Shown here one piece after another: positions 4,295 to 57,207 of a DNA stretch of 57,519 nucleotides. This stretch comes from Minisyncoccia bacterium. Lineage in GTDB: Bacteria; Patescibacteriota; Minisyncoccia; Phycocordibacterales; Phycocordibacteraceae. The notes beneath the pieces are model-generated. The model was not told where the DNA came from and searched no databases. It was given only the letters and a program-made list of their open reading frames with translations. Location: NCBI GenBank assembly GCA_049305795.1, contig JBAQPM010000005.1, positions 1 through 57,519 of the forward strand, read 5' to 3'. Every line of letters starts with the position of its first letter. Position 1 is the stretch's first letter. A program made the translations under genes and the position numbers.

Positions 4295-4774
4295 ATCTTT
4301 CAGGAGGCCCGCAAACCACTTCTTGGCGTGGTAGACCCCATTCACGTGTTCAACACGTGCATAAGGCCCCTCCGACCAACAACCGAAGGCCGCAAAGCAG
4401 CGGTTGCCAGCTTGGTCTCTCCAATGAGTCACATTGGGATACTGATCGGCGAACGAAGGGTCGAACTTGTTCGCCGCGGCGAGTGAGTACGGATCGGCGG
4501 GCAGAAGTGCCCGTGATTCATATTCCCTCTCAAGGGCCCGGTCGTTAACCACGTATCCGATCTTGAAGAAAACAATTTCGACGTACTCGCCGATACCTCG
4601 CGGCATTGCCGCGAGCACGGAATCGTCGACGTAAAGCTGGCGACCAGTTGCCTCGAGCGCTGTTCTCGGCGGCCGCGTGCGATCCACGCGTACTAGAAGA
4701 GTGAGCTGGTCTCCTTTCGGAGTATTCCATCCTTCTTTTGCAATCCTTGCGAACAAACTCACGACTCGTGTCAT
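4280..4774 (-). CDS. Hypothetical protein (164 aa), visibly GC-richer than its neighbours
   Basis: Open frame. The ATG at 4774 is preceded by GGGAGG 7 nt upstream, whereas the tracked ORF start at 4807 lacks an SD. I recognise no motif. Confidence 0.6.
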   Translation of the reverse strand: MTRVVSLFARIAKEGWNTPKGDQLTLLVRVDRTRPPRTALEATGRQLYVDDSVLAAMPRGIGEYVEIVFFKIGYVVNDRALEREYESRALLPADPYSLAAANKFDPSFADQYPNVTHWRDQAGNRCFAAFGCWSEGPYARVEHVNGVYHAKKWFAGLLKDDAVA

Positions 4775-4947
4775 GGGTTTTCCTCCCTTGTTTATTTTTT
4801 TATTCACGGAAACGCAAAGACCTACAAACTGGATTAAACAATACGGTACATTCGTATATTGTCAATGTCTTAATTTTTGAAAGTTGTTGTAATTATGTTA
4901 TAATTGGGCGGGAAATTGTTCCTGACTGCAACCACGGAGGTACTTCA

Positions 4948-34194: not shown

Positions 34195-34848
34195 TTAGTT
34201 AAACTCTAAATATTTACCGCCGCCGACTATCCTAACCTTTCCATCAATCACTTCGAGCGCTGACTGATCATCAAGAAAATAGATCTTTTTTGATACTTCA
34301 TTTGCAACCTTATTTGCGTTCTCTTCCATTCTTTCTGGGAAGAAAGGTGAATTTAGATGAGGAAGAAAATAAAAATCGACCAAACCCAAGCCGTCCATAT
34401 TTTTTTCTTCCAAGTCCTCACCATAAATTACCTGAGACAAGCGCAAAGCGAGATCAGGACCAGTTACCATACTCCCCGCACTCAAACCAACATACACTCT
34501 AGTTTTAAGTAACTCGGGTAGAATTTTTACGAGACCAGATTTATTTATCCATCTCATTAGATGATACGTATTGCCTCCTTCAAAGAACAGGACGTCAGCA
34601 TTTTCCAGTTGTGGTTTCCAAATGCTTTCCGGAACTGCGGAAATATCAGCTATCGCGATGGATTTAAAACCTTGTTTTTTAATATTTGCAAGATCATCGA
34701 TAAGCCAACCCTTATCATCTGTCTCAATGTTTGAAGCCGTGGGAATAAAGCAGAGGGAGGTATCTTCTGGCCTCTTCCCCACCATTTCAAAGAGAGTATC
34801 TGCAATGGCCTGATTTGATAATCCTCCCGAGGTGAGAAGTAATTTCAT
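34195..34848 (-). CDS. Peptidase S51 (dipeptidase E-like) family protein
   Basis: LLLTSGG, FFEGGNTYHL and nucleophile context VGLSAGSMV. Confidence 0.78.
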   Translation of the reverse strand: MKLLLTSGGLSNQAIADTLFEMVGKRPEDTSLCFIPTASNIETDDKGWLIDDLANIKKQGFKSIAIADISAVPESIWKPQLENADVLFFEGGNTYHLMRWINKSGLVKILPELLKTRVYVGLSAGSMVTGPDLALRLSQVIYGEDLEEKNMDGLGLVDFYFLPHLNSPFFPERMEENANKVANEVSKKIYFLDDQSALEVIDGKVRIVGGGKYLEFN

Positions 34849-34927
34849 ACTCGGAATAATAGCAAATCTAGCTCGCTTGTGGTGAGACCAGAATCTTTAC
34901 ACAATAGAGGGAATGTAATATCCCCTA

Positions 34928-35425
34928 TCAAGATAGATGTGCGGCAATCTTTTTAACTGCCTGGTCAAAATTCACTCCTACGTTCACAAATTCAAGGGGT
35001 AGTTTAGCCTCTGCAAATATCTCCTTCACGAGCTCGTCTCGCTCTATCCTATCGGCTCTGTGGTGAGAACTACCGTTTACCTCAACTGCGACTATCGGTT
35101 TAAAATAGCGGTCGCAAATTAGGAAATCTATGTGTTTCGGAAGTATCTTATTCCGTCGTCGATAAAATCCTTTTCCGTCCACAGCATCTATTATGTCGGC
35201 AATACGCATATTCGGAAATATGTGATACTCGCTCGACAATTGTTTTCGTAGTTCATAGAAGAAAGCGCTTTCGCTTTTGTTCATGATACTTTCTCGCTTT
35301 CGAAACGAAGGAGCAGAATTGACGGTTCCTGCCAGAACAGAAGTACCGAGCATTTGCACAACCCACGTTATTCCAAGTATTACGAGCACAAATATGGCCA
35401 GCCAGAAGACAGACATCATAATCAA
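34928..35425 (-). CDS. DUF2726-type (restriction-endonuclease-fold) membrane-anchored protein
   Basis: N-terminal TM helix, then ESAFFYELRKQL...HIDFLICD...PIVAVEVNGSSHH...RIERDELVKEIF, matching my recollection of DUF2726. Confidence 0.6.
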   Translation of the reverse strand: MIMMSVFWLAIFVLVILGITWVVQMLGTSVLAGTVNSAPSFRKRESIMNKSESAFFYELRKQLSSEYHIFPNMRIADIIDAVDGKGFYRRRNKILPKHIDFLICDRYFKPIVAVEVNGSSHHRADRIERDELVKEIFAEAKLPLEFVNVGVNFDQAVKKIAAHLS

Positions 35426-35579
35426 TGTTAACTATAGTAGGTAATTATACTCCTATCATTAATTTTTATTTACCTACCTGCGGTCGCTCGGCGATATGTT
35501 GCAAGATAGGATTCGTTCTCATCTTCCAATTTCGAGATACATATCCTTTCTGGATGTTGGTTCTAGACTCAAACAGGGG

Positions 35580-36554
35580 TCAATAGAAAGTAGTAAGAGT
35601 CTTGTGATGCGGCTTCGAGAAGGTCGTCGCTTTCGCTTTTACCCAAAGAATCCAATCGAGCTCATTGGTGCTTATTTCCCTTCCCAATCTCTCAATCTCA
35701 TTTCGTATCTGCTCGATGGCTGCGATAGAGCTTGCGCGCAATTCAACTTCCTTCTGGGAACCTGCCGGTATGAGGATCTCATTGACTACATCCGCGTCAA
35801 GTTCAGAGCTGTACCTTAGAACGCCGAATGATTCGAGGATTTGTGGGAGTTTATAGTCTGCGAATACGGTCAGATTCCCGAGGTTCGTGATAGTTAGTTC
35901 AGAAAGCCCGGCAAATGAGAGGTCGGAAACAAATATCTGTGCTCGCTTTAGTAAGAAGATTTGATGCCCATTCCAATCTACGGAATCATCGAAACTTGGG
36001 AAATGTTCTAGGAGGAGCGAGACAATTCTGTCTGCGTCCATTCCTGCTTCCTTAAGGATATTCAGCGCTTGGCCGTCAAAATGCTCTCTAAGGATTCTGA
36101 AGTTCTCTCGAATAATCTCTAGTCGCTCTTCCATGAGAAGTAGTTCGTTACGACCTGCAGCAAATATCGACCCAAAGTCTTCTTCGGGAATCTGGCTAAG
36201 ATATTCAGCATCGAAGAGTCTTGGATCTTTGAGGAAGGCGTCTTTTATAGCTTTCGAATACGCATAGTATCCGCCTACCCATTCTCCATTAATCGAATAT
36301 TCCCACCGGGTCTTCCCTTTCGGTGCCCAGAAGCAGAAGTTAATACTATCAAGAAAGAGATAGTATTGGACTGTCTCTTCAGGAGTGCCGAGTAGCTGTA
36401 GGTCATTATCCCAGGACGGTACAGGCGATTCCATAAACTCCTTTGCTATCCCCGTGATCCTTTCGTTGTCGATAGTAACAAAAGTCGGGTGCGCGAGGAT
36501 AGGGGTGAGAGAATTTAGGATCTTTTCCCGTGTGGTCATAGCACTATGGTACAC
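35580..36554 (-). CDS. Queuosine-salvage family protein (DUF2419/QNG1-like), tentative
   Basis: 324 aa with a LFLDSINFCFW block and overall resemblance to the DUF2419 family as I recall it; not verified. Confidence 0.5.
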   Translation of the reverse strand: MYHSAMTTREKILNSLTPILAHPTFVTIDNERITGIAKEFMESPVPSWDNDLQLLGTPEETVQYYLFLDSINFCFWAPKGKTRWEYSINGEWVGGYYAYSKAIKDAFLKDPRLFDAEYLSQIPEEDFGSIFAAGRNELLLMEERLEIIRENFRILREHFDGQALNILKEAGMDADRIVSLLLEHFPSFDDSVDWNGHQIFLLKRAQIFVSDLSFAGLSELTITNLGNLTVFADYKLPQILESFGVLRYSSELDADVVNEILIPAGSQKEVELRASSIAAIEQIRNEIERLGREISTNELDWILWVKAKATTFSKPHHKTLTTFY

Positions 36555-36744
36555 GAATTTGAGTTCGATTTCCTAGACGGGTACGGGTTTAGAAATATCG
36601 AACCAATTTTTCAGATGGCTTATTTATTGACCTGTTTAGGTCCTTCGATACTTTTCTAGACTGCTGACTGACACGGTCACGAGCTTGTGTAACGAGACAC
36701 CACAACACATTTAACGATCCCTTCTACTCCTTGTATGAGGTGTC

Positions 36745-37800
36745 TCAGTCTCCAGTGATTTCGCCCGATGGGTTACGTATCTCTCCTATCAAATTAACGA
36801 AGTTGCCATGGTATCCCTCCTCCTCAAGCCTTGCTATGAAAGCCAACCAATTTTCTTCTAGTTCAGGAAAGTTATTCTTTGAAAGCGTATACAGTTCAAG
36901 AAATATATCCTCAATTTCTCCAGCCTGAAGAATTTGATTATATCCGTGGGAATCATTATTAAACGATTCATCTAATATTTTAATGACATCATCCTTATTC
37001 AAAATCGAAACAAGAGGCTTAATGAGAAGTTGAGCATTTTCCTCGGAGGTTCTGAAACCTTTGGATTCAAGAAAATATGAAATGGCTCTATCTTTTACAT
37101 TTTTAGTCGTCTCTGGAGAAAACTCCTGTTGAGAGATTAGGCTCGCAACATAGATATATTTTAGTTTTTCAATCTTTACTCCACTTGATGAGAAAATGGC
37201 GTTAATTTTCTGCATATCCTGGTCAGAAATATGCCATTCTCCCTTCTTTTCAAGAAGTTCAAAAATCTTTGTAACGAACCCGTTATGCTCAGTCTGAATG
37301 GCTACACATATCTGTATAAGCTCCCTTAATACCTGCTCTAAATCCTCCGTCTCTGTGCCAAGCGAATTAACATGTGCCTTTTCATTTCTCTTCTGCAAAA
37401 CACCCTGAGCTTTCTTAAAATACTGCTGATCGACGTTTTTATAAATATCTTTCAATTTTCCGACTATCGCGTCTTCTCCTTGTTTACATTCGGTTTGGAG
37501 TTTACCTAAAGCACATAGGTGTCCATCAAGATAGTCATTTGGCTTGTTAGAGGTAAGAGCATCAAGGAAAATCTTGTCGGATTTATATGGAGTTCCGTCT
37601 TCCTTCTCTATTTCTCTTAATTGCCAGAGTTTCTCGTATATAAAAAGCATGAAGATATTCCATGCATAGATCATTGCAGCATCGTAAAGACCGTGTTTTG
37701 CAGCAAGATACAATTTTTGCTCATATCCATACGTTTTACCATTACAAACATATGAGCAAAGCGTACCAATTTTCTGTTCTATATCTTCACTACTGCTCAT
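36745..37800 (-). CDS. Hypothetical all-helical protein (351 aa) translationally coupled to hsdMS
   Basis: 4-nt overlap (37797-37800) with the upstream hsdMS ORF. I recognise no motif. Confidence 0.6.
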   Translation of the reverse strand: MSSSEDIEQKIGTLCSYVCNGKTYGYEQKLYLAAKHGLYDAAMIYAWNIFMLFIYEKLWQLREIEKEDGTPYKSDKIFLDALTSNKPNDYLDGHLCALGKLQTECKQGEDAIVGKLKDIYKNVDQQYFKKAQGVLQKRNEKAHVNSLGTETEDLEQVLRELIQICVAIQTEHNGFVTKIFELLEKKGEWHISDQDMQKINAIFSSSGVKIEKLKYIYVASLISQQEFSPETTKNVKDRAISYFLESKGFRTSEENAQLLIKPLVSILNKDDVIKILDESFNNDSHGYNQILQAGEIEDIFLELYTLSKNNFPELEENWLAFIARLEEEGYHGNFVNLIGEIRNPSGEITGD

Positions 37801-40244
37801 AAGGTTACTAAAACTCTTTCAATTCGTTTCTCCATTATCTCAATCAACTTATTGTTTGATTCAATGATCTCATCTTGAGATTCCATCTCAGCTACAAGTT
37901 CTTTTTGTGTTATAAGATCCGGAACAGCGATCTCTGTAGCCTCAATTAACTTATTGTAAAGTCTTTCAATTGTTCCGCCTTTGGTAGTCACCCACTCAAT
38001 AGCTTGAAAGGTGTAGTAAAGATATTTATTCAAAACTAGTTTTTCATCATTATCGATCCAGACAATGTTCGAATCTTGAAAATATGCCGGTTGCCCGTCG
38101 TAAATTACGACTCTGCCAATGGTTCCAGAAGTTGACAATAGTATGTCGCCCTTTTTAGGGAACGAGTACTTTCTGCGATAATCATCATAAAGGTCTTGAC
38201 CTATAAATGCATCTGCATCTTTACCGAAAGTGCCAATTTTATAAAATGGAACATCGCCCGCTGTAGATGTTTCTTCTTTAAAAATTCTTTTGCACATAGA
38301 TATCTTCCCAATTTCTCCAAGTTTGATACGACTGACTCCCTCTAGTCCCCTAAGTAAGTAGCCGAAATATCGTCTCTCTCTCTCTAGATTTTCGATGACC
38401 TGTTTTGCGCCTTCAATTGCTTTTTGCTTTACTTCAAGTTGCTTGACAATTTCCTTTTGAACCTCAAGTGGAGGAAGTGGAATCTCTATTTTAGAAATAT
38501 CCTTTGGGTAAACATGTGGCTGTCCTCCACCTGTTTGAAGTTTATAAATTTCCTCTTGAATATTACGAAGGAAGTAATAAATATACTCAATCAACACGTC
38601 GTGACTATCACCTGCCTGGATAGTTGTGCAGTCTGAGGCAAAAATTGGAACCTTAAAAAAGTTTACGAAACCAGCATAAGCCCCTGACGCACTGATCGTG
38701 ATTGTTTTTCCTTCTCTGTTTGACTGATTATGGTAATAAGCTGGCTGTTGTCCTCCAGCAATAACAGGAACCACTCCTTCAACTGTGATCTTTTTTGTAA
38801 TAGGAGATCCTTTTTTAATTTCACAAATATCACCCAGACGAACAATTGGATATTTTTCATTTCGTATTTCCGAAGCTTTGTATCTATCAGCAGAAAGATT
38901 GTAGTCATCATTTTCTGCAATCTTCTCTTTCGGAACAATAAATCCTTTGTTTGAATTAAAAATAAAAGACTCTACAACCTCACGACTCTGATCTGCTCTT
39001 ACATACTCACGAAAACTTTTAAGAATAACAGCCGCATCTACCAAGTCATCTTTATCACTCTTTCGGCGCTGTGCACCAAGGTCATACCCATCGTGCAAGA
39101 CTTTTACAAAGAGCAGATCTTTTGTTTTCTTTGCTACTTCATTATCAAAGAAAAGAATACTGGTTTTCACTCCAGAGTATGGATTGAAGACTCCTGCGGG
39201 AAGCGATGCAACAGCAAACAATCCATCATTTACCAGATTCTTGCGAAGCTCTTTATAAGCTTTCCCCGACTGGAAGATAACACCCTCTGGAACAATGATA
39301 CCTGCCCGTCCTTTTGGCTTGAGGTGGTTCATTATGTAGTCTACGAACAGCACCTCGGCTCGGTTGGCTTGAATACTAAACTTATTGTGAGGCTTTACAC
39401 CACCTTTCGGAGACATAAAGGGTGGGTTCGCCAAAATGACATCAAATTTATCATTCCAGCGCTCCTCGCTTGAAAGCGTATTGTAGTTATAAATCTTTGG
39501 CGTGGTGAACTTATGCAAGTACATATTCACTTGCGACATACGTACCATAGTTGGGTCAATGTCGTATCCCTGAAAGTTATTCACTAATTTCTTACGCTCG
39601 TCTGAAGTGAGCTGTTTAACTTTTCCAGTTTCCGGATCAACTCCTTCGTTTTGTCTTTTTATGTAATTGTATGCACTGATCAAGAACCCGGCTGTACCAC
39701 AGGCAGGGTCTAAAATGGTGTCGTCTTTGCTTGGAGCAGTTACATCAACAATAAAGTCGATGATGTGGCGAGGGGTACGGAACTGCCCCGCATCACCCTG
39801 AGAGGACATTATTGAAAGAAGGTACTCGTACGCATTTCCAAGTTCCTCAGAATGAGAATAATCAAAGTATAAAATTTCTTTAAGAAAAAGACCAAGAACT
39901 TCTGGGTCACGATATGGCAAAAATGCCTGTCTAAATATATCTCTAAAAAGCTGTGGTAACTGCTTCGCTTCCGAAAACTTCATCAAAGCCTCTGTATAAA
40001 TATTTGTGCGTTCCTGATTTCCGAGTCGATCGCTCATCAACTTGGTCCATGCGTATTTTTCTAAATCTCCAGTGAAAAATGATGGTTCCCCGCCGGCTTT
40101 GATAGCCTGTTGATCCATGTCATCCATAAACTTATAGATGAGCGCGTTCGTGATCTGCTCAACTTGAGACATGGGGTTCGGCACAACCCCGACAAGAACT
40201 TGTCGTGCCGCATCAATATGTTTCTTTGTGTCTTGAGTAAGCAT
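37797..40244 (-). CDS. hsdM: Type I R-M fused methyltransferase-specificity subunit (HsdM-HsdS fusion)
   Basis: N-terminal ~460 aa carry motif I DPACGTAGFL and motif IV LANPPF (N6-adenine MTase). The C-terminal ~355 aa carry two TRD-like halves (IVRLGDICEIKKGSPI..., RIKLGEIGKISMCKRIF...) separated and followed by helical conserved regions. The 815-codon frame is uninterrupted. Confidence 0.85.
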   Translation of the reverse strand: MLTQDTKKHIDAARQVLVGVVPNPMSQVEQITNALIYKFMDDMDQQAIKAGGEPSFFTGDLEKYAWTKLMSDRLGNQERTNIYTEALMKFSEAKQLPQLFRDIFRQAFLPYRDPEVLGLFLKEILYFDYSHSEELGNAYEYLLSIMSSQGDAGQFRTPRHIIDFIVDVTAPSKDDTILDPACGTAGFLISAYNYIKRQNEGVDPETGKVKQLTSDERKKLVNNFQGYDIDPTMVRMSQVNMYLHKFTTPKIYNYNTLSSEERWNDKFDVILANPPFMSPKGGVKPHNKFSIQANRAEVLFVDYIMNHLKPKGRAGIIVPEGVIFQSGKAYKELRKNLVNDGLFAVASLPAGVFNPYSGVKTSILFFDNEVAKKTKDLLFVKVLHDGYDLGAQRRKSDKDDLVDAAVILKSFREYVRADQSREVVESFIFNSNKGFIVPKEKIAENDDYNLSADRYKASEIRNEKYPIVRLGDICEIKKGSPITKKITVEGVVPVIAGGQQPAYYHNQSNREGKTITISASGAYAGFVNFFKVPIFASDCTTIQAGDSHDVLIEYIYYFLRNIQEEIYKLQTGGGQPHVYPKDISKIEIPLPPLEVQKEIVKQLEVKQKAIEGAKQVIENLERERRYFGYLLRGLEGVSRIKLGEIGKISMCKRIFKEETSTAGDVPFYKIGTFGKDADAFIGQDLYDDYRRKYSFPKKGDILLSTSGTIGRVVIYDGQPAYFQDSNIVWIDNDEKLVLNKYLYYTFQAIEWVTTKGGTIERLYNKLIEATEIAVPDLITQKELVAEMESQDEIIESNNKLIEIMEKRIERVLVTL

Positions 40245-40246
40245 AA

Positions 40247-42805
40247 TTAGTTCATAAATGTATTTAGTGATACGTAGTCTTTAATGTATCGAGGAATGAT
40301 ATCCTTAAATCCATTACATGCGTTCCATTCCTCAAACGATAGGGCTGGCGACTGGAAAAGTTCAGCATATGCCTTTCTGTCGATAATATCTCTCACCTCA
40401 GCATCTGCGATATACGACTTGAAGAAGTGCTTCGCCTGATAATAATGCTCAGGATCTACAGGATTAAGTTCGACAAATTTTTCCCATTCTGCATCAAGAA
40501 GTTCATTCTTGGTTTCAAATGTATCCTTTTCTCCAAAGGCGACCTGCAGGAACTCTCGAATACTGATTCTTCGATCGACATTGAATATCTTTCGAATCTT
40601 CTGAAGATTTAAGAAGTGTGCAGGCTTATCGAATATGTTCTTTTTGATATACTCTTCCGCTTCAATTATATCGCCGTTCTTCCAAAGGTTAGAGAGAACA
40701 GCATTACCAAGAACATCCTCCTCCACAGCCCTACGAAAGCCTTCACGGTCAATACGCATTCCATCTGCCCCAACCTCCGTATGAGATACCGAGACAATCC
40801 TATCGTCTGATTGCAGGTCGATTGGACCCTTAAATATTTTCTCTCCGTTCTCATCAACGAACTCGCTCTGTTCTGATTCGACAGATCCTTCCGTTGCAGG
40901 AATCTTCTTAATGACCGGTAGTTTTACCTTGTCGTCATATTTGAATTCCTTTTCAAAATATTCACAGGCCGCAAAGAAGTCGAAAAACTTAAATGTTTTC
41001 TTTTCTTCGCGATAGTTTTCATTCTTTTCGGTATCAGTGTAATCGAACACATGCTTTCGAGTACCACGCCCCTTTATCTGAACGAAATCTGATGGACTAA
41101 ACACAGGACGCATGAGCGCGATGTTTAGGAGGTCCTGACAGTCATATCCTGTCGTCATCATGCCGACCGTAACAGCAATACGAGTTTTACTTGAATCGTA
41201 ACCAGGAGGCAGTGGAACTTGACCACCTAGACGATTATTAGAGAAGTTTATGGTCATCTGCTGTGCATCAGAAACCTGTGAGGTCACTTGCATAGCAAAG
41301 TCTGATTCTTTGTATAGTTCTGGCCACTTCTGAAAAGCAAGCTTATTTAGAATGTTTGTGATTCGGGCAGCATGCTTCTGTGATACACAAAATACGATAC
41401 CCTTTCCGAACAGAGGTACACCCACTTCTTCAGCTACAGGATCAAAGAGACCGTTCTCAATAAATGCCTTCGCCATCGCGATATTAGTTTCCTCATTGAA
41501 AAACTTCCTTTCGTAGTGTTTCTCACTGAAGACTTGATCTACAGTTTCTCCGTCTTCGGTAGTTGTATGCACCGCAAATCCATCATCTGAGAGAAGCTTG
41601 GTAGTAATTTCGGTACGGGCATCGACAATAATTGGGTTGATGAGAAATCCGTCTTGAACACCCTTCAAGAGGTCATATCGATATGTTGGAGAACCTGACT
41701 CGCAACCAAAAGTCTTGTAGGTATCCAGAAGTTGACGACGTTCAAACTCTCTTTGAGTATCTGAATCTTCTCCGTCAAAACCACGTAGATAGTCTTTAGG
41801 CGTGGCCGTAAGTCCTAGCTTGTAGCCAACGAAATACTCAAAAACTGCACGAGAGTTACCTCCGATGGAACGGTGCGCTTCGTCTGAAATAACAAATTCA
41901 AAGTCCGTTGGAGAGAATTCCTTTTTGTAACGATCTCCAGCCATAAAGGTTTGGATCGTCGAAACCACTACTTGTGCGCGTTGCCATGAATCACGTGCAT
42001 CCTTGTAAATAACGCAGGTGTAGTCTTTACCGAGATACTGTCTAAATGCTTTGTATGACTGATCTTCAAGCTCGATACGATCCACAAGGAAAAGCACTCG
42101 GCGTGCGTTACCAGATTTTAGAAACAGTTTAATCACCGCCGCAGAGGCGAGAGTCTTACCCGTACCAGTAGCCATCTCAAAAAGGAAGCGGCCGTTACCT
42201 TCAAGTGCGGCCTGTTGAAGTGCCTTAATTGCTTCCACCTGATACGGTCGCATCTGTTTTAAATTGTTTGCTCTCAAGAACTCTAAACGTAGTGCATCGT
42301 CTTTAAATGATGGATCATTATCAAACCCAGGCATCTGAGAAGAGATGATGTAGTTCTCATCTACCTCAGTTGAAGCCAGCTCTTCTGCATTTGGAGTGTA
42401 GCTTTCAAACTGAGTGATTGATTCTTGTGTAGGAAAACGTGCAATCGTATCCGGATTGCCGTGCTTAGTATCCCAAAAATAGTGAAGGTTTCCGTTAGAA
42501 AGGATTACGAATCGAGCACCCACATTACGTGCGTAGTTGCGAGCCTGTTCTTTTGCAGAAAGTGGCTCAATCGCTTCTTTCTTTGCCTCAAGCACAAGGA
42601 GCGGGCGGCGCCCATCCTTATCCAAAAGAAGATAGTCGATGTAACCCTTTGCGATATTCTCAAAATCCTCCCCAGCCTCAGCCAAATTCACACCTGGCTC
42701 AAGAGAAATATTTGCTTTTCCTGCTTCAGAGTCCTCAAAACGCCACCCCGCCTGTTCAAGAAGTTTGTTTATCTTTATTCGTGCTTGTGCTTCTTTGTTA
42801 TTCAT
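40247..42805 (-). CDS. hsdR: Type I restriction enzyme R subunit (HsdR)
   Basis: N-terminal PD-(D/E)xK-like region (IDYLLLDKDGRRPLLVLEAKKE), helicase motif I MATGTGKT, motif II DEAH (VISDEAHRS) and motif VI QIKGRGTR. It sits 2 nt upstream of hsdMS. Confidence 0.88.
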   Translation of the reverse strand: MNNKEAQARIKINKLLEQAGWRFEDSEAGKANISLEPGVNLAEAGEDFENIAKGYIDYLLLDKDGRRPLLVLEAKKEAIEPLSAKEQARNYARNVGARFVILSNGNLHYFWDTKHGNPDTIARFPTQESITQFESYTPNAEELASTEVDENYIISSQMPGFDNDPSFKDDALRLEFLRANNLKQMRPYQVEAIKALQQAALEGNGRFLFEMATGTGKTLASAAVIKLFLKSGNARRVLFLVDRIELEDQSYKAFRQYLGKDYTCVIYKDARDSWQRAQVVVSTIQTFMAGDRYKKEFSPTDFEFVISDEAHRSIGGNSRAVFEYFVGYKLGLTATPKDYLRGFDGEDSDTQREFERRQLLDTYKTFGCESGSPTYRYDLLKGVQDGFLINPIIVDARTEITTKLLSDDGFAVHTTTEDGETVDQVFSEKHYERKFFNEETNIAMAKAFIENGLFDPVAEEVGVPLFGKGIVFCVSQKHAARITNILNKLAFQKWPELYKESDFAMQVTSQVSDAQQMTINFSNNRLGGQVPLPPGYDSSKTRIAVTVGMMTTGYDCQDLLNIALMRPVFSPSDFVQIKGRGTRKHVFDYTDTEKNENYREEKKTFKFFDFFAACEYFEKEFKYDDKVKLPVIKKIPATEGSVESEQSEFVDENGEKIFKGPIDLQSDDRIVSVSHTEVGADGMRIDREGFRRAVEEDVLGNAVLSNLWKNGDIIEAEEYIKKNIFDKPAHFLNLQKIRKIFNVDRRISIREFLQVAFGEKDTFETKNELLDAEWEKFVELNPVDPEHYYQAKHFFKSYIADAEVRDIIDRKAYAELFQSPALSFEEWNACNGFKDIIPRYIKDYVSLNTFMN

Positions 42806-42808
42806 AAA

Positions 42809-43015
42809 TTATTTCAGGAGTTCATCAGCTGATACTCCTAGGGCTTTGGCGAGATTGGTAATCGTAGAAAGTGTGGGATTAGTCTTCCCATTCTCTATAT
42901 TACTCACAAAAGAACGATCGACGCCGAGCGTCTTTGCGATACTTACCTGCGTAATATCTTTCTTCGTTCTGATCTTCTTGAGATTCTGACCCAATCTCTT
43001 CGCATCATCTTTCAT
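42809..43015 (-). CDS. XRE-family HTH regulator (controller-like) heading the R-M operon
   Basis: 68 aa with a classic Cro/C1 HTH (ITQVSIAKTLGVDRSFVSNIENGKTNP). There is a 3-nt gap to hsdR. Confidence 0.85.
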   Translation of the reverse strand: MKDDAKRLGQNLKKIRTKKDITQVSIAKTLGVDRSFVSNIENGKTNPTLSTITNLAKALGVSADELLK

Positions 43016-43208: not shown

Positions 43209-43742
43209 CTACTTTAGCACTACGCAATTATTAATCACTGGATAGTAATAGCCATTGAGGTTGGAGTCGCTAAATTCTCCCACAAAATACAGTGTCTGAC
43301 CCTGTTTTAGAAGCATAAGAGTATCTTTCGCGTTCTGATCGTTCTCCTTTAACGAACAAGCAATCTGGTAAGGTTTAAACCAACTTCTTATCCAACTTGT
43401 ACCAAAATCAATCACAAGGTAGTAGTTATTCTCTCCAAAGAAATTTGTATATCTTCCCTGGCCACTTACAAGCTTCCCTTGATATGTTTTTAAGAAGTTT
43501 GCTCTTTCATAAGCTGTCTTAAAATCGCTTGCCCTCGACAGAACATCCGCTAATGGAACTGTGCTCGTAGCATTAACTGCTTCGGCGAAGACATCCTGCG
43601 GAATTGGTGGATTGTAGACAAGATAGATAGTCCAGAACGCTGCTATTGTGGCTATAGCAGTCAGGAGTAATCCTGCAATCTGAGCCCAGATTGGGAGATT
43701 CCCCAATTCCTTTGCGATACCCCCTGATTTCTCTGCGGTCAT
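43209..43742 (-). CDS. Membrane-anchored protein D of the protease operon (177 aa)
   Basis: Single N-terminal TM helix (LPIWAQIAGLLLTAIATIAAFWTIYLVY) and a ~125-aa extracytoplasmic domain. I recognise no motif. Confidence 0.6.
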   Translation of the reverse strand: MTAEKSGGIAKELGNLPIWAQIAGLLLTAIATIAAFWTIYLVYNPPIPQDVFAEAVNATSTVPLADVLSRASDFKTAYERANFLKTYQGKLVSGQGRYTNFFGENNYYLVIDFGTSWIRSWFKPYQIACSLKENDQNAKDTLMLLKQGQTLYFVGEFSDSNLNGYYYPVINNCVVLK

Positions 43743-43780
43743 AATGGTAATTATGACACGAACCAGTTTTACCTGCCCGC

Positions 43781-44293
43781 TTAGTTTGTGGCCGGTCTAC
43801 TGAATAAATTTGCTAGCGACCAGCCGAGATGATGTCTTCCAAGATCACTCATTGGGACGATTCTGTCTGAAATACGGGCTGCTATTACCGCGCGAGGTAC
43901 ATATATTATAGTTTGCAGATCGGCGATAGATTCTGGCAAGCCATTAAATGCGGGTAGATAAAAGAAATAATAATTCTTTCTATCTCTGATACTTTTCACA
44001 CTATCTGTGTTGAGAGTATTATCTTCAATAAATTGTGCCAGCTCATGTACTGGGCAGATCATGACATTATTTCTTCGCTGAATATCGCATGTTTGCGATA
44101 GAAGAATGACTCTCTGTGTTTTAGAACCAATTACATGTAAGTCGGAAGTGGCCGCCTCCTGCTCTAAAGAAAAAGAGCCGTCTTCCTCTTTTTTAACTGA
44201 CTGAGGCTTGTCTAGAATATAAAACGGGAAATTCTCAAGTATGTCGCCTTGATACAGTGTGTTTGGGTCTACCGTGGCTGAATCAGCATACAT
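43781..44293 (-). CDS. Hypothetical soluble protein C of the protease operon (170 aa)
   Basis: Open frame 38 nt upstream of D and co-directional with it. I recognise no family (LLSQTCDIQRRNN, YYFFYLPAF). Confidence 0.6.
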   Translation of the reverse strand: MYADSATVDPNTLYQGDILENFPFYILDKPQSVKKEEDGSFSLEQEAATSDLHVIGSKTQRVILLSQTCDIQRRNNVMICPVHELAQFIEDNTLNTDSVKSIRDRKNYYFFYLPAFNGLPESIADLQTIIYVPRAVIAARISDRIVPMSDLGRHHLGWSLANLFSRPATN

Positions 44294-44312
44294 AGGGACA
44301 TAGGAACAAAGA

Positions 44313-44558
44313 CTAGTTCAAGCTAGTTTTGAATACCTTTTTATAGAATTTCTCTTCCTCATCCTGAGAAAGTTCGTCTTCTTTTCCTGAAGTTGAGGGC
44401 TGATTAACCTTCAATGGCTGAATGAGCCGTCCATTCTCGATATGCAATACAGTACCCTTTAATAAGAATTCGTTATTACCAGAGGTACTCTGGTTATTCT
44501 TAGATCCAATAAATGTGCTGCCGGTTTGGGAGTATTGCATGTTTAAGTAATTATCCAC
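44313..44558 (-). CDS. Small protein B of the protease operon (81 aa; alternative start 44540)
   Basis: S/N/Q-rich N-terminal half and an acidic tail (DELSQDEEEKF). It overlaps the protease gene by 16 nt, or abuts it if the start is at 44540. Confidence 0.45.
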   Translation of the reverse strand: MDNYLNMQYSQTGSTFIGSKNNQSTSGNNEFLLKGTVLHIENGRLIQPLKVNQPSTSGKEDELSQDEEEKFYKKVFKTSLN

Positions 44559-45577
44559 TTATCTCCTGCGAGATTTAGATTTACCTGCACATTTCCAGAG
44601 GGATCTGGAATCTTTGCCAAAATGTATTTTGACTCAAAAGTATATTTTGAATCGAGACTGTGTATCACAGCACGTCTTACATTTACTTCTTTTCTATCTT
44701 CTGCACCCAATACTTCCTGCGGATTAAAGTCCGTCTCTAGGTCTAGGTAGTCTATGTACTTATCAAGAAGATTTTCAATAATCTTCTCATTCTTTGAATC
44801 AGGGCAGTCTACTACTCCATCGAAACCAATATCCTTTGCTTCATTCCTACTTATAAGGTGCTTGTGGGAGAAAAGCTTCTGTGTCAGATGTTCAATAATC
44901 TCACGAGACTGTCTTTCTGGAAGAGCTTTGGCATGCGTATGGAGAAGATTTTTTGCGAGCCTTCTGACCAGCGAATGGGTACGGTTTGTTGAGCCTAGAA
45001 CTGTAGGGGCGATTTCCTTCGTAAGCTCTTTCATTATGTCTGCCAACGCAGTTTGCTCACTAATTCCAACCTTTTCCTTTATGAAATCTACATAACCGAT
45101 TACATCTTCAATCTCTATATGCTTGAGTTGGTTATTGCCGTCCTGAATATTCGCAGCAGGATCAATTGGGCTTAGGTGAGCATAGCGTGTAAGCACAATT
45201 TGATCCGCACCCAGGGCGATCATTGTTCCTGCGCTGAGTGCCTTAGACAAAACGACTACTTCAAATTCATCACAGTGCTCACGGATGAGATTTACCAAAG
45301 GCCAAGGAGTCTCTAGGTGTCCTCCATTTGTATAAAGTGCCAAAGTAATCTTACTTGTATGATCGATCTTTCTTAAGATCTTCTTAAAGTAAGGGAGTAT
45401 GTCGGATGCAACTTGTGTCGAAAGAAGTTGCTCGGGTTTTCTATCACCCGTTATGTACACAATGACTTTACTATTGCGGGCTTGTTCAAGGTCGGAAATA
45501 ACCTTATCCAAAGGATCATTTACAGTAGTAGCAACCTTTTTTACAGCCTTTTTTGCAACTTTTTTGGGCATAGGCAA
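44543..45577 (-). CDS. Clp-fold serine protease of the SDH (serine dehydrogenase proteinase) / SppA-like class
   Basis: Lys-rich N-tail, then VIVYITGD, LALYTNGGHLETPW and VVVLSKALSAGTMIALGADQIVLTRYAHLSPIDP (nucleophile Ser in SAG). A ~170-aa helical C-terminal region follows. Confidence 0.7.
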   Translation of the reverse strand: MPMPKKVAKKAVKKVATTVNDPLDKVISDLEQARNSKVIVYITGDRKPEQLLSTQVASDILPYFKKILRKIDHTSKITLALYTNGGHLETPWPLVNLIREHCDEFEVVVLSKALSAGTMIALGADQIVLTRYAHLSPIDPAANIQDGNNQLKHIEIEDVIGYVDFIKEKVGISEQTALADIMKELTKEIAPTVLGSTNRTHSLVRRLAKNLLHTHAKALPERQSREIIEHLTQKLFSHKHLISRNEAKDIGFDGVVDCPDSKNEKIIENLLDKYIDYLDLETDFNPQEVLGAEDRKEVNVRRAVIHSLDSKYTFESKYILAKIPDPSGNVQVNLNLAGDKWIIT

Positions 45578-45631
45578 ATTGTACCTAATCTACATGATTC
45601 TTGCCATCCTGGTATGCAAACAAATATTTCC

Positions 45632-45994: not shown

Positions 45995-46369
45995 CTACTT
46001 GGCACTATTTCGATACTTGATCATTTCTGCGGAATTGATCACGCCGATAGTTGCTGCAAGTTCGTGATAAACACACGCGTCCATAATGCGATTGTAATTA
46101 TCTTCGCCTACGCTAGAGATAGTACCTATTCGTTCGCCACATTCATCGAGTGCTTGTCCGCGCAGCGCCATATGAAGATCCTCGCAGGATTTCTGCATAT
46201 CTGCTCTTGTGTCCCCATGATTCCCCATATATCGGAGTTGCTCTTCGGAATAGCCCGAACAAGAAATGAGGTTCACTTGTTCTGTACGGTAATCAATAGA
46301 ATCTCCCCAATAGAAACCAGCAAACGCAGCTACTGGTATGAGAAGAACCAGCGCAGGAAGAAATTTCAT
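45995..46369 (-). CDS. Secreted hypothetical protein (124 aa)
   Basis: Signal-like N-terminus MKFLPALVLLIPVAAFA and several Cys residues. Confidence 0.55.
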   Translation of the reverse strand: MKFLPALVLLIPVAAFAGFYWGDSIDYRTEQVNLISCSGYSEEQLRYMGNHGDTRADMQKSCEDLHMALRGQALDECGERIGTISSVGEDNYNRIMDACVYHELAATIGVINSAEMIKYRNSAK

Positions 46370-46387: not shown

Positions 46388-47056
46388 CTATTTGAACCAG
46401 CTAAAGGGATTCAGACGGCTAACGAAGACCGAGAAGCGAGACCACAGTGAGACGGGAGCAATCTCTTTCTGATTGTTTGGCACCGTATCCACTGATGTAG
46501 AAGCCGAGAAGCCTGAACCATTGGAACTATCTTTTGAAATACTCTCGACTGGAATTGTTGGCTTTGCCTTTATTTCTATAGGTATTGAAGTTGTAGTTGG
46601 TTGAGAGTTTTTCGTTGGCTCTAATATTGCAGAGGCCTGTGCGGGTACCGTTTGAACAGGGTCTTTCTTTTCATTCTGCTTGATCTGTTCCGCAACAGCG
46701 TCTTGTATCTTTTTATTAAGTTGTTCGTCAGCGAGACGCTCGGCTTCCTTTTTTTCTGCGTCAATCTTCGCTTGCTCAGCAGAGATTTTCTCATCATATG
46801 CTGTTAGCAATTCTTTCGGGCAAGGAAACATCGACACCCCATAACCGCTTGGATTCTGTGCAGAGCACCCGTACTCAGAATACATATCCTCACCCTTTGA
46901 GAAAAATACGCACTGGCCATTTACTTTTAAACCAGACGTATTGCCGACACTACATTCAGTTGCTGCATTTACGATAAAGGGTAATCCGAGCGCAAATACT
47001 ACAGCGAGAACTACGAGACTTTTAAGCCTAATAGGCTTGTTTGGTAGGAATTTCAT
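46388..47056 (-). CDS. Secreted hypothetical protein with a coiled-coil and S/T/P-rich tail (222 aa)
   Basis: Signal-like N-terminus (LVVLAVVFALGLPFIVNA), a Cys-containing domain and a charged helix (EQAKIDAEKKEAERLADEQ). Confidence 0.55.
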   Translation of the reverse strand: MKFLPNKPIRLKSLVVLAVVFALGLPFIVNAATECSVGNTSGLKVNGQCVFFSKGEDMYSEYGCSAQNPSGYGVSMFPCPKELLTAYDEKISAEQAKIDAEKKEAERLADEQLNKKIQDAVAEQIKQNEKKDPVQTVPAQASAILEPTKNSQPTTTSIPIEIKAKPTIPVESISKDSSNGSGFSASTSVDTVPNNQKEIAPVSLWSRFSVFVSRLNPFSWFK

Positions 47057-47067
47057 ATATTTAGTAT

Positions 47068-47736
47068 TTATGATAACTCATCAAAATTCACTTTCCGGTT
47101 AGTATGTGAAAGCCCACCCTTCCCGACCCTCGCCCTACGGGAAGACTCGGAATTCCCGACAGTTTCCGACAGTTCCATAGTTGGCTTCAAATCAGGTTCT
47201 CCGTGTAGAAATTTCTGCAAATCCTCGTACCAAGATTCGCCCCATAACGCCCTATCGCAATCACGCAGTGAATAGTCCGGGTAGATGCCCTTCACAAGCG
47301 ATACATATTTCCAATACAGTCTCTTCTTCTCCTTGCGATTGAGGACCGTAATCAGTTTTCGTATCTGCTCTTTCTCGTCAGGTATGCGCTTATTTAATTG
47401 TTCTCGCACCCGATAGTCATAAACAGTAAAGATATCTGGGTAAAGAATCGTTAGAATCGCCGATGCCATTGCGATATCAATTCCGTCCTTGTCGAGCAAA
47501 AGATCAAGTTTCGCGTCAGGGTCTTTCTCGTTCGCAATAGCAATGGTAAGTTCTTTTACCGCTTCGTCAGGCAAACCAGCTCTGATTCTCTTTGCGGGTC
47601 GTCTTGATTTCCAAAATACGATCTCAAAAAACTGCTCTGCTGTAAGGTAGTGATTTTGCACGAAAGCAGACCGCACCTCTCTTTCAAGAAAATGGTCATC
47701 AACCCAGTAGTAGTGTCGGTAATCTTTAATAGGCAT
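47068..47736 (-). CDS. Hypothetical protein (222 aa from the ATG at 47736)
   Basis: Open frame; the tracked start at 47751 is GTG. The segment IDIAMASAILTILYPDIFTVYDYR weakly recalls helix-hairpin-helix-type proteins. The 3' end contains TTCCGACAG repeats. Confidence 0.55.
   Translation of the reverse strand: MPIKDYRHYYWVDDHFLEREVRSAFVQNHYLTAEQFFEIVFWKSRRPAKRIRAGLPDEAVKELTIAIANEKDPDAKLDLLLDKDGIDIAMASAILTILYPDIFTVYDYRVREQLNKRIPDEKEQIRKLITVLNRKEKKRLYWKYVSLVKGIYPDYSLRDCDRALWGESWYEDLQKFLHGEPDLKPTMELSETVGNSESSRRARVGKGGLSHTNRKVNFDELS
47153..47176. repeat. 10-bp tandem TTCC(C)GACAG repeats inside the 3' end of the 47068-47736 gene
   Basis: ttcccgacag tttccgacag ttcc matches 20 of 24 positions of ttcccaacag ttcccaacac ttcc at 47995-48018, in the same orientation. 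Confidence 0.7.
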
Positions 47737-47738
47737 GC

Positions 47739-47757
47739 AAAAACCCACCACGTGGGT
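47739..47757 (-). terminator. Terminator-like hairpin ending 2-3 nt before the ATG at 47736
   Basis: Minus strand reads ACCCAC-GTG-GTGGGT followed by TTTTT, then GC, then ATG. There is no T run in the plus orientation. Confidence 0.5.
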
Positions 47758-49957: not shown

Positions 49958-50144
49958 CGTATGGATTTGTCTGGAGGGGTCGGAAAAGGTCGGCAATACG
50001 AGGACGAAGAAAGACTTGTCTCGTTCTTTCGACTCCTCCTTGAAGTGGATCGTCGAGTGAATCCCGATTTCTATACACGCTCCCCTGTTGCGGGTTCTGA
50101 CTCGAAACAAGAGGGTAAGAAAGAGGCCCCAGCCGTATAAGTAT

Positions 50145-51641
50145 ATGCAACCAATTACTCGCGCAACTAGGGCAATTCTTCTCGCTCGCGTTTCTGACGT
50201 GAGGCAAGATACCGAGGACGCGCAGTTGAGTAATATTAAGCATTTTGCCGAACGTTTTAATTTCGAAACGATTGAGGAATACAGAATCAAAGAGTCCTCA
50301 ACAAAGGGAGATCGGCGAAAGTTCCAAGAGATAATATCTGAGATTAAAGCGTCCAAAGTACCAGTTGCTCTTATCGTAGACACGGTGGATCGGCTCCAAC
50401 GAACCTTTCGTGAGTTCGTTCTATTCGATGACCTCTTAAAGCAAGGAAAGGTTGAGTTGTATTTCTATCGAGAGAATCTGGTCCTCAAGAGCGACGCAAA
50501 CTCCTCCGATATGATGCGTTGGCAAATGGGCGTGATGTTCGCCAACAACTACGTCCTCCAGCTTGGCGATAACGTGAAGCGTAAGTTCAAGCAAATGCGT
50601 GAGGAAGGAAAAAGGACAGGACCCGCTGAGGACGGCTATATTCCCGTCTACGAGGTTGATAGAGCCGGAAAGCGACACCGCATTGACATCGTTCCCGATC
50701 CAGAGAAAGCTCCTTTAATCGCTGAAGCATTTCGGCTCTTTGCGAGTGGTATGTACTCAATAAAAACGCTCACTGTTGAAATGCAGAAGCGAGGACTTAC
50801 TGGCAGAACGGGCAATCTGATCTGTACGAGCAAGTTGCATTTCATACTCTCAAACCCGTTCTACTATGGTCTTATGCGCTCGAAGGGCGAAACCATGCCC
50901 CATATATACGAGCCGATTATTAGCGAGGAACTATTTATGCAGGTGCAGAAAATACTCAAAGGGAGACGCAAGAACCCGACAAAGTTTGTCTCGAATGATT
51001 ACGTCTTCCGAGGACTCATACACTGCGCCAACTGCGGATGTCTATATAGTCCTGAGCGTAAACGCGGGCATTTGATCTACTACTCCTGCACGAACGCCAA
51101 GCACAACTGCAAGCGCGATTATATGCGAGAAGAAAAGCTTTTGGAGCCTATCCTCGAAACCCTCTCCAAGCTTGAACTGTCTAAGGAGAAAGTAGCGGAA
51201 CTCGTGAACGCGCTCCGTAAATCCACGGAGTCAAAAGGTCTCTACCAAAAGGAAGAACGCACACGCCTCACTAAGATCATTAACAATGAGCAGATTGTTA
51301 TAGACGGAGCCGCTGTTAAGTTCGCTCGAAGTGAAATTGAGAAGGAGGTGTATGACCGCTTGATAAGCGCGAGTCGAGAGAAGCAACGCCACGCAGAAGC
51401 AGAAATAGCCAAGCACTCAGACTTGGATGAGGACTATTTCATAAACGCCGAACGCGTCATCAATATCGCGAGCAGAGCGCGAGAAATCTTTGAAAGTTCT
51501 GAAGTTGATGAAAAACGAGCCTTTTTGACTTTCTTACTTCAGAACCCAACTGCTGACGGAGAAAAGCTAGAGTTTACGCTGAGATCTCCCTTTCAGGAGC
51601 TGCTTTCTATAACTGATCATCCAAACGAGCTGCGGGACTAG
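50145..51641 (+). CDS. Large serine recombinase (integrase)
   Basis: Resolvase catalytic domain (AILLARVSDVRQ, DTVDRLQR), recombinase domain (FILSNPFYYGLM), zinc ribbon (CANCGCLYSP...YYSCTNAKHNC) and a coiled-coil tail. The ATG is at 50145. The stop TAG (51639-51641) lies inside tRNA-Gln. Confidence 0.88.
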   Translation: MQPITRATRAILLARVSDVRQDTEDAQLSNIKHFAERFNFETIEEYRIKESSTKGDRRKFQEIISEIKASKVPVALIVDTVDRLQRTFREFVLFDDLLKQGKVELYFYRENLVLKSDANSSDMMRWQMGVMFANNYVLQLGDNVKRKFKQMREEGKRTGPAEDGYIPVYEVDRAGKRHRIDIVPDPEKAPLIAEAFRLFASGMYSIKTLTVEMQKRGLTGRTGNLICTSKLHFILSNPFYYGLMRSKGETMPHIYEPIISEELFMQVQKILKGRRKNPTKFVSNDYVFRGLIHCANCGCLYSPERKRGHLIYYSCTNAKHNCKRDYMREEKLLEPILETLSKLELSKEKVAELVNALRKSTESKGLYQKEERTRLTKIINNEQIVIDGAAVKFARSEIEKEVYDRLISASREKQRHAEAEIAKHSDLDEDYFINAERVINIASRAREIFESSEVDEKRAFLTFLLQNPTADGEKLEFTLRSPFQELLSITDHPNELRD

Positions 51642-51701
51642 GACTCGAACCTAGATAACGACCTCCAGAGGGTCGCGTCCTACCATTAGACGATCCCGCA
51701 A
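51631..51701 (-). tRNA. tRNA-Gln (anticodon CUG)
   Basis: Hand-folded 71-nt cloverleaf. Acceptor TGCGGGA/TCCCGCA has U1:A72, typical of tRNA-Gln. D stem GTCT/GGAC, anticodon stem CGACC/GGTCG, loop CTCTGGA, T arm CTAGG-TTCGAGT-CCTAG, discriminator G. No encoded CCA. Confidence 0.88.
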
Positions 51702-56331: not shown

Positions 56332-57207
56332 CTATTCTAACCCATGTCCGCTCGCGGCGTCTATGAATTCGTCTAGGTCTCCCTGCAAAACTCGCTCGGG
56401 ATTACCTTCTTCATGCGAAGTTCGATGGTCTTTTACCATTTTATAAGGATGCAGCACATAGGAACGTATCTGACTTCCCCATTCATTTGCCGTGGTTTTT
56501 GCTATGGAACGTCCATCTTTTTCAGCCTTGCGCTGTTCTTCCTCCTTGGCAAAGATTTTCGCCTTAATAAGTTCCATCGCTTTCTCGCGGTTAGCCTGCT
56601 GACTTCGCTCGCTTGAAACATGCACGGAAAGATTCGTGGGTTTGTGGAGAATACGCACCGCTGTTTCTCTTTTGTTTACGTTTTGTCCGCCGGCACCTCC
56701 CGCCTTTGCAAATTGAATTTCAAGATCGTCCGGTTTTATCTCGACCTTGTCGGCTGCGGAAAGTTTAGGGAGGACTTCAACAAGGGCAAAAGAAGTTTGC
56801 CGTTTTCCTTGCGAATTAAAAGGTGAAATACGAACCAGACGGTGCACACCGGCTTCATGTTTGAGACGACCGTATGCCCCCTTGCCAGAAATTTCAATGA
56901 GGACGCTTCGGAAACCGCCTTGGCTGTTTTCATTCTCATCAAGTCGGCGCACACCCCAACCCTTTTTTACTCCGTATCCCTGATACATAGAAAGAAGCAT
57001 TGCCGCAAAATCTTCGGCGTCGTCTCCGCCTGCACCCGCAAGAATGGCAAGTGTTGCTCCGCCTCCATCATGTCCCTCGCCACTTCCGCCTTCTTTGAGT
57101 GATTGATATTCGCGCACAATTTCTTGTGCTCGGTCTTTGTCCGTCCAAAAGTCAGGCGACGCCATGAGCGCTTCGATTTCAAGCACTCTCTTCTCTGCGT
57201 CGGCCAT
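56332..57207 (-). CDS. prfB: Peptide chain release factor 2 (short form, no frameshift site seen)
   Basis: SPF tripeptide ([16 protein letters not shown]) and GGQ ([11 protein letters not shown]). The start is set at the ATG at 57207 ([12 protein letters not shown]), with TATAAT 7 nt upstream. The tracked ORF extends to 57270. Confidence 0.88.

Follow-up and report, generated by a model that had tools for sequence, protein, structure and literature searches.

In a 57,519-nucleotide stretch of DNA from a Minisyncoccia bacterium of the Patescibacteriota (contig JBAQPM010000005.1, positions 1 to 57,519 of the forward strand; hereafter the window), a gene encoding an SDH-type serine protease of the ClpP fold (A) is followed on the minus strand by a gene for a small low-complexity protein (B) and by a gene for a protein predicted to adopt the fold of the MazF, PemK and Kid toxins (C). 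The three genes form a conserved unit that recurs on mobile and defence islands of ultra-small bacteria, and we consider it somewhat probable that A-B-C is a self-contained, horizontally mobile, tripartite module of the toxin-antitoxin (TA) type, serving addiction or abortive infection. The TA-like reading is based on the predicted toxin fold of C, on the small gene upstream of the gene with that fold and, decisively among the comparative observations, on the swapping of partners by related proteases. A preliminary description of the locus, made from its sequence, had proposed a four-gene defence operon in which A acts together with B, C and a membrane protein (D). In our opinion, a three-gene TA-like cassette that includes its own protease describes A-B-C better than a new class of sensor/effector operon does.

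The A-B-C cassette and its three proteins

All four co-directional, minus-strand open reading frames (ORFs) of the preliminary description, A to D, were recovered with exactly the coordinates and lengths listed there. Two of the starts are, however, probably internal to these longest ORFs. Gene A most likely starts at ATG 45571 rather than at TTG 45577, and thus spans 44543..45571 (minus strand, 342 residues); the protein made from this start is identical to the database protein P0001. Gene B, a candidate antitoxin or protease substrate, spans 44313..44540 (minus strand, 75 residues) when read from ATG 44540, the longest ORF beginning at GTG 44558. The 16-nucleotide (nt) overlap between A and B that had been described probably results from the rule of taking the longest ORF, because the aligned B homologues all begin M-x-Y-F-S-Q-T-G, and the window counterpart of this motif (MQYSQTG...) begins at ATG 44540, 2 nt after the TAA stop of A. 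Gene C, the candidate toxin, occupies 43781..44293 (minus strand, 170 residues), and D occupies 43209..43742 (minus strand). No Shine-Dalgarno sequence is recognizable at the start of A, B, C or D. A −10-like TACAAT ends 6 nt before the ATG of A (within 45571-45610), which would fit a leaderless or near-leaderless transcript.

Relatives of A were taken from genome contigs searched with the single A query (loci L001-L003), from look-ups of exact proteins (L004-L010 and L098-L102), and from a metagenome scan in which the query was an alignment of 27 A homologues (L013-L092). When every ORF of these loci was searched with hidden Markov models (HMMs), 44 non-redundant close-clade A proteins (~42% identity or more) were identified. 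In every non-redundant member of the clade that heads an A-B-C triad and has at least 760 nt of downstream sequence (34/34), a C-family gene lies on the same strand no more than 400 nt after A. A small ORF separates A and C in all 37 triad loci examined, with a spacing of −29 to +21 nt between A and B. The spacing between B and C is 2 to 37 nt in 36 of the 37, and the called ORFs of the remaining locus overlap by 38 nt. The most distant C that we found (29% identity; L098) still has an SDH protease and an 84-residue gene upstream; a CDP-archaeol-synthase-like gene is present on the same contig. No conserved fourth gene follows C in 35 triad loci, where the next gene is absent, convergent or unrelated. 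The conserved unit is therefore one of three genes, A-B-C, within which an adjacent, co-directional small gene and toxin-fold gene are conserved as a pair, as in type II TA systems. That A heads a tightly packed cassette, as first described, is borne out by this strict co-occurrence; the expectation that homologues of A to D would recur in that order holds for A-B-C and fails for D, which follows C in none of these loci.

In the sister clade, which comprises more distant members of the protease family (35-41% identity), C is absent, and different toxin genes lie at coupling distance after several of the proteases. In two loci, the sister-clade protease is followed by a 77-residue ORF and a PIN-domain protein (L049, 1557-2227; L054, 4975-5645), and in two more by an ORF of 88-95 residues and a ParE-like toxin (L052, 1712-2248; L081, 2843-3405). 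In a fifth, a PemK/MazF toxin comes directly after the protease, with no convincing small ORF between the two (L067, 1261-1665). These arrangements suggest that protease-headed toxin cassettes form a wider family. The link between sister-clade proteases and toxins is recurrent, but it is not universal. Other sets of partners also recur in the sister clade. One comprises proteins of ~204 and ~96 residues and a PIN-like protein (L057, L068, L083 and L086; for example, L068 at 4367-5776). Another is a ~212-residue single-pass membrane protein (L064, L066, L070 and L075), and a third is DUF6941 (L084 and L092).

Genes of the C family also occur without the protease outside the triad lineages, in accessory positions and as pairs of a small ORF and C. 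One lies between cI and int of Pseudomonas phage VW-6S (L011, 3833-4429). Another adjoins the portal gene of the P2-like Pseudomonas phage Dobby, with a small ORF directly upstream (L104, 1892-2786), at the position where P2 carries old. A third, on a small Phocaeicola plasmid, likewise has a small ORF directly upstream (L103, 3639-4600). A tblastn search of plasmids with a Zn-ribbon-bearing relative of C gave no match.

Protein A had been recognized from its sequence as a serine protease of the Clp/SppA fold and SDH family, and profile and structural comparisons agree. It matches PF01972 (SDH_protease) over residues 24-261 with 50.3 bits and an E-value of 2.3e-13, above the Pfam cut-off of 31.3. 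Against the NCBIfam model NF047768 ("SDH family Clp fold serine proteinase") it scores 64.9 bits, short of the equivalog-level cut-off of 250, and A belongs to a divergent SDH subfamily rather than to the curated equivalog. It also matches phrog_11747 (function unknown) at 1e-37, NfeD1b_N at 27.6 bits (below the Pfam cut-off of 40), the head-maturation protease model NF045542 at 36.3 bits (cut-off 120), and phrog_1684 at 2e-9. The AlphaFold model (predicted local distance difference test [pLDDT] 82) has the ClpP/SppA/NfeD fold: the disordered N-terminus, rich in Lys, precedes a ClpP-like core, and the protein further comprises a helical insert and, at the C-terminus, a beta domain of three strands. 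Its best Foldseek matches, at a probability of 1.0, are the NfeD protease 1510-N (6m4b, 3viv), SppA and ClpP.

The proposed nucleophile, the Ser of the SAG motif in a G-x-S-x-G-like turn, is supported by a profile-to-PDB alignment, in which LSAGT of A aligns with AASAGT of 1510-N; this Ser corresponds to the catalytic Ser97, which is mutated in the S97A entry 6m4b. Four residues are invariant in the 27 A homologues (S113, which is Ser115 when counted from the start of the 344-residue longest ORF, D137, R197 and H236). K167 and K232 are nearly invariant and, beside D137 and H236, are candidates for a second catalytic residue, which may be a Lys forming a dyad with the Ser, as in SppA and 1510-N, or part of the Asp/His triad described for the SDH family. 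With its conserved nucleophile Ser and invariant Asp and His, A looks catalytically competent. It has no hydrophobic or transmembrane (TM) segment. The Lys-rich stretch that had been described as a tail does exist (six Lys in the first 16 residues), but is situated at the N-terminus.

As first described, B is rich in Ser, Asn and Gln and has an acidic patch near its C-terminus; together with Thr and Gly, the three residues account for 56% of positions 1-52. Its homologues are conserved at both ends, with an N-terminal xYFSQTG and a C-terminal acidic run followed by FYKKxFxT, and have a variable linker in between. B evolves much faster than A or C. No domain was found in it with Pfam, NCBIfam, PHROG or PADLOC. 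It has no signal peptide, and there are no export genes nearby. Among all small ORFs of the viral and sister-clade loci, a B HMM found a match only in L050, a locus that does have C. An N-terminal "YF.QT" motif that seemed common to the small partners was dropped, as the B HMM gave it no statistical support.

The earlier account of C as a soluble protein in which no motif could be placed is accurate, in that C is soluble and has no Pfam match. Its predicted structure nevertheless makes it the likely effector. The AlphaFold model of C (pLDDT 90.4) was compared with the PDB by Foldseek, and the top 50 matches are all toxins of the MazF/Kid/PemK type (target template modelling score 0.58-0.72, probability 1.0). 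In the viral structure library BFVD, the top nine matches are PemK-like or unnamed, and none belongs to another family. Judging from this model, C has a beta-barrel fold of the MazF/Kid/CcdB type. We draw the assignment from the predicted structure, because sequence-level comparisons with PemK and MazF were not significant; a PDB sequence-profile search with the C family found no match, even at an E-value of 10. The family has its own invariant residues (Q15, G16 and D17; S66, Q67, C69, D70, Q72 and R73; F111, Y112, L113 and P114; E121; R153; R166 and P167), which lie in the motifs QGD, SQxCDxQR, FYLP and RP, among others. It is large, with 1240 representatives at E <= 1e-3 in a library clustered at 50% identity, and has no Pfam model. 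C itself matches phrog_4575 (function unknown) at 8.5e-14.

Gene D and the mobile setting of the cassette

Gene D encodes a single-pass membrane protein, with the one N-terminal TM helix that had been described (a single hydrophobic segment at about residues 16-43). Only three homologues of D were detected, none of which adjoins A-B-C, and nothing resembling D comes after C in the triad loci. Two related loci place D in a different context. By tblastx, L093 (1-4611) is collinear with the flanks of the island in the window, the order being the end of pyrG, tRNA-Gln, D and Peptidase_S51; between tRNA-Gln and D it carries an SLFN_AlbA_2 gene that is unrelated to the cargo of the window. In L096 (1-1551), the order is tRNA-Gln, His_Phos_1, NADAR and D. 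Because related genomes keep tRNA-Gln and D with different cargo between them, D is a conserved host gene at the distal border of a variable interval downstream of tRNA-Gln, and it lies outside the A-B-C module. The idea that D belongs to the operon finds no related locus in its favor, and the proposal that A activates the membrane protein by proteolysis fails since D is not a component of the module.

In the window, the variable interval covers approximately 43.78-51.64 kb. Its proximal border is a tRNA-Gln(CTG) gene identified by ARAGORN (51629..51700, minus strand). A large serine recombinase with Resolvase, Recombinase and Zn_ribbon_recom Pfam matches lies at the tRNA end (50088..51641, plus strand), and A-B-C lies at the far end. 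The G+C content falls to 0.37-0.44 over ~34-47 kb, compared with 0.47-0.52 in the rest of the window, so that both parts of the description as an AT-rich, tRNA-linked island hold. A terminator-like hairpin at 43079-43061 follows D, which is possibly co-transcribed with A-B-C here. In a scan of the region, promoter-like sites were as numerous as expected from shuffled sequence and terminator-like sites about twice as numerous; we used neither as evidence.

The mobile and defense-island neighborhood that had been proposed is also seen beyond the window. In the window and in L009, L014, L017, L100 and L102, a large serine recombinase is encoded no more than a few kb from the triad. The commonest class of neighbor is restriction-modification (R-M) genes: in the 128 ORFs tallied in 15 loci, the most frequent families are N6_N4 methylase and ResIII, with four members each, and DpnII, R.HinP1I, and C5 and D12 methylases are also represented. 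Triads also neighbor GmrSD and Panacea (L004), MazG-like, SLFN-type helicase/nSTAND3 and HNH genes (L101), and an NgoPII R-M system (L102). In the window itself, the Type I R-M block reported downstream of A-D was matched as XRE, hsdR and an hsdM-hsdS fusion. The DUF559 nuclease-fold gene reported upstream of A was found only as a sub-threshold match (18.6 bits; cut-off 20.6).

As first surmised, no known defense system accounts for the locus, in that none of the four proteins has a match at E <= 0.1 to a PADLOC model (PADLOC-DB v2.0.0). Comparisons of B, C and D with Pfam, NCBIfam and PADLOC were all at noise level, and B and D have no match among the PHROGs. The earlier judgement that a prohead-protease role is unlikely also stands: the annotated triad neighborhoods contain no capsid, portal or terminase gene, and the triad clade is absent from the 2.9 million viral contigs of IMG/VR. 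Nor does a Band_7 gene adjoin the triad in any of these neighborhoods.

Proposed mechanism, alternatives and known systems

In the mechanism that we propose, C would be a growth-inhibiting effector, namely a divergent protein of the MazF/PemK fold, and B would neutralize it, probably through its conserved acidic and aromatic C-terminal segment. A would act in the cytoplasm as an ATP-independent protease on a partner from its own operon, most likely B. Cleavage of B by A would make B a short-lived antitoxin without any contribution of the host Lon or Clp proteases. As long as the operon is expressed, B would be replenished and C kept blocked; once expression stops, either through loss of the element or because a phage shuts off its host, A would remove B and C would be freed, thereby stabilizing the island, aborting the infection, or both. 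Action of the protease on the small acidic protein, which the preliminary description had named as an alternative, has thus become the leading idea. A precedent for a ClpP-fold protease that acts on the product of a neighboring gene is 1510-N, which cleaves the stomatin encoded in the same operon (PH1510/PH1511); its PDB entries describe it as specific for a stomatin homologue.

Several observations weigh against this mechanism. Neither C nor 32 diverse members of its family match any Pfam model, and an hhalign comparison of the family with six PemK/MazF sequences, of which five were not checked against Pfam or the PDB, gave a non-significant E-value of 0.063. Escherichia coli MazF depends on R29 and T52 for RNA cleavage, and the hhalign register puts this catalytic Arg and Thr on non-conserved residues of C. 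Because the C family has its own invariant set in their place, C may have an activity other than RNA cleavage, or may not be toxic at all. Most type II antitoxins carry a DNA-binding domain, and none was found in B with Pfam, NCBIfam, PHROG or PADLOC; HMM comparison also detected no homology between B and the small partners encoded in the PIN and ParE cassettes. Many sister-clade proteases adjoin non-toxins, including TM proteins, DUF6941 and an SPFH-like protein, and the association of triads with defense genes is a descriptive tally. Finally, cleavage of B by A, cleavage of C by A, and processing in place of degradation are all compatible with these data.

The main rival explanation reverses the polarity, as in type VI or Rosmer-like systems. 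A itself would neutralize C by degrading or clipping it, B would be an adaptor or regulator, and C would accumulate whenever A or B is blocked. The strict co-occurrence of A, B and C fits this scheme equally well, the PemK gene of L067 follows its protease without a convincing small ORF, and in RosmerTA the antitoxin has a protease domain and its toxin partners are swappable (PMC10440598). We nevertheless think it rather unlikely, given that B is invariably present in the triad clade, occupies the classical position of an antitoxin and has a conserved acidic C-terminal segment. In addition, the folded beta-barrel predicted for C would be a less obvious substrate for a protease that lacks an ATPase than the disordered B. 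It is less likely, in our view, that the cassette involves no toxin and that A matures or turns over B, for example into a signalling or regulatory peptide, with C as an adaptor or binding protein of the MazF fold. The missing MazF catalytic residues and the lack of sequence similarity to PemK would suit such a role for C, as would the motifs at both ends of B around a variable linker, which are reminiscent of a processed precursor. However, the high-ranking structural neighbors of C are all toxins, genuine PIN, ParE and PemK toxins accompany related proteases, the distribution is patchy and island-borne, and B has neither a signal peptide nor export genes in its vicinity.

Two further explanations carry far less weight. 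The four-gene operon of the preliminary description, with a protease that activates D or the small acidic protein upon infection, draws on the close, co-directional spacing of the ORFs, on the possible co-transcription implied by the hairpin after D, and on a neighborhood rich in defense genes. We judge it to be very improbable, as the few D homologues never lie beside A-B-C, D follows the same tRNA-Gln with unrelated cargo in related genomes, and C is not followed by a conserved fourth gene. Hardly credible, to our minds, is a remnant or accessory of phage morphogenesis, in which a ClpP-like prohead protease has a scaffold-like partner, or a housekeeping NfeD protease-stomatin pair, even though A is weakly similar to head-maturation protease models and to NfeD1b_N, and one sister-clade protease (L058) is followed by what appears, by eye, to be a TM plus SPFH protein. 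The scores concerned are below the curated cut-offs of NCBIfam and Pfam, head genes are missing from the triad neighborhoods and the triad clade from viral contigs, no triad has a Band_7 gene beside it, and A has no TM segment.

Compared with known systems, the A-B-C triad is an analogue rather than a member of MazEF/PemIK, RosmerTA/COG2856-Xre, TAC/SocAB or NfeD-stomatin, because it lacks the sequence or domain features that define each of these systems. The triad resembles MazEF and PemIK (Kis-Kid) in the position of a gene for a small, labile-looking protein just ahead of the MazF-fold gene, at coupling distance, in its patchy, island-borne distribution, and in the faster evolution of the antitoxin-like than of the toxin-like gene. 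It differs in that a third gene, for a dedicated protease, is always present, C has no PF02452 sequence match and no catalytic Arg/Thr, and B lacks an AbrB or ribbon-helix-helix DNA-binding domain. Moreover, the presumed protease for the antitoxin is supplied in cis, rather than by the host as Lon or ClpAP. The toxin-antitoxin-chaperone (TAC) systems, in which a chaperone protects the antitoxin, and the type VI system SocAB, in which the antitoxin hands the toxin over to ClpXP, share with the triad a third factor that controls protein stability and decides whether the toxin is free. In the triad, however, that factor would be the operon-encoded protease itself, with no SecB-like chaperone and no implied dependence on a host AAA+ protease.

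Among solved structures, 1510-N is the closest to A, with which it shares the aligned nucleophile Ser. Unlike the soluble A, 1510-N is membrane-anchored and has an SPFH membrane scaffold as its partner, whereas the partners of A are a disordered peptide and a toxin-fold protein, and the NfeD1b_N match of A is sub-threshold. The ClpP-related prohead proteases of phages share the ClpP fold and a weak profile similarity with A; they differ in that A scores far below the cut-offs, has no structural genes nearby and belongs to a clade that is not found in viral contigs. RosmerTA consists of a toxin, RmrT, and an HTH-ImmA/IrrE metalloprotease antitoxin, RmrA; its toxins are swappable and it acts against phages (PMC10440598). 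Like the COG2856-Xre-toxin systems, it shares with the triad a protease-domain partner, interchangeable unrelated toxins, and a location in defense islands or mobile elements. In contrast, the triad protease is a ClpP-fold serine protease rather than a zinc metalloprotease, A has no helix-turn-helix (HTH) domain, and the triad has three genes, including one for a separate small protein. A does not match the RmrA models of PADLOC, which in this locus match only the neighboring XRE gene, through its HTH. In the literature on SDH, ClpP-like and S49 proteases in connection with defense or toxin-antitoxin systems, we found no description of the A-B-C module.

In classical TA systems, the instability of the antitoxin depends on the host proteases Lon, ClpXP or ClpAP, and how and when degradation occurs has long been disputed. 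We tentatively raise the possibility that the protease gene serves ultra-small prokaryotes with reduced genomes (Patescibacteria and possibly archaea) as a portable "bring-your-own-protease" chassis, to which any toxin (C, PIN, ParE or PemK) can be coupled in modules for addiction or abortive infection. If so, antitoxin turnover in these modules would be independent of the host Lon or Clp, and the cassettes would represent a new class of TA system that contains its own degradation machinery and defines two uncharacterized protein families, B and the large C family. They would also offer a compact system in which the step of antitoxin degradation can be reconstituted and mutated, for instance by replacing the nucleophile Ser with Ala. 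A role would be found for the MazF-fold family of C, which is large and unannotated (~1240 clusters at 50% identity, with no Pfam model), and for a divergent branch of SDH/S49-like proteases that PHROG annotates as "unknown function", and Patescibacteria, whose immune repertoire is poorly known, would gain a candidate defense or addiction system.

Other features of the window

A second variable block, at 34195-43015, lies between D and the S51 peptidase gene. It contains the XRE controller-like gene, HsdR and the fused HsdM-HsdS (815 residues, with two specificity domains), as well as genes for queuosine salvage and a DUF2726 protein, and one for a 351-residue protein with no Pfam match, whose overlap with hsdMS is 4 nt. 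On the other side of the cassette, two adjacent island genes (45995-46369 and 46388-47056) encode proteins that both begin with MKFLP and a hydrophobic, signal-peptide-like stretch, and that have no family assignment. The island gene at 47068-47751 encodes a 227-residue protein matching phrog_24538 (function unknown) at an E-value of 2.7e-8, and is the sole other island gene with a phage-family match. Finally, a release factor 2 (RF2)-like, or prfB-like, frame is found at 56332-57207, with an apparent start at ATG 57207 just after a TATAAT. No short frame is evident upstream, and the usual leader for a programmed +1 frameshift is seemingly absent. The presence of this RF2-like gene in the window is consistent with UGA being a stop codon here.

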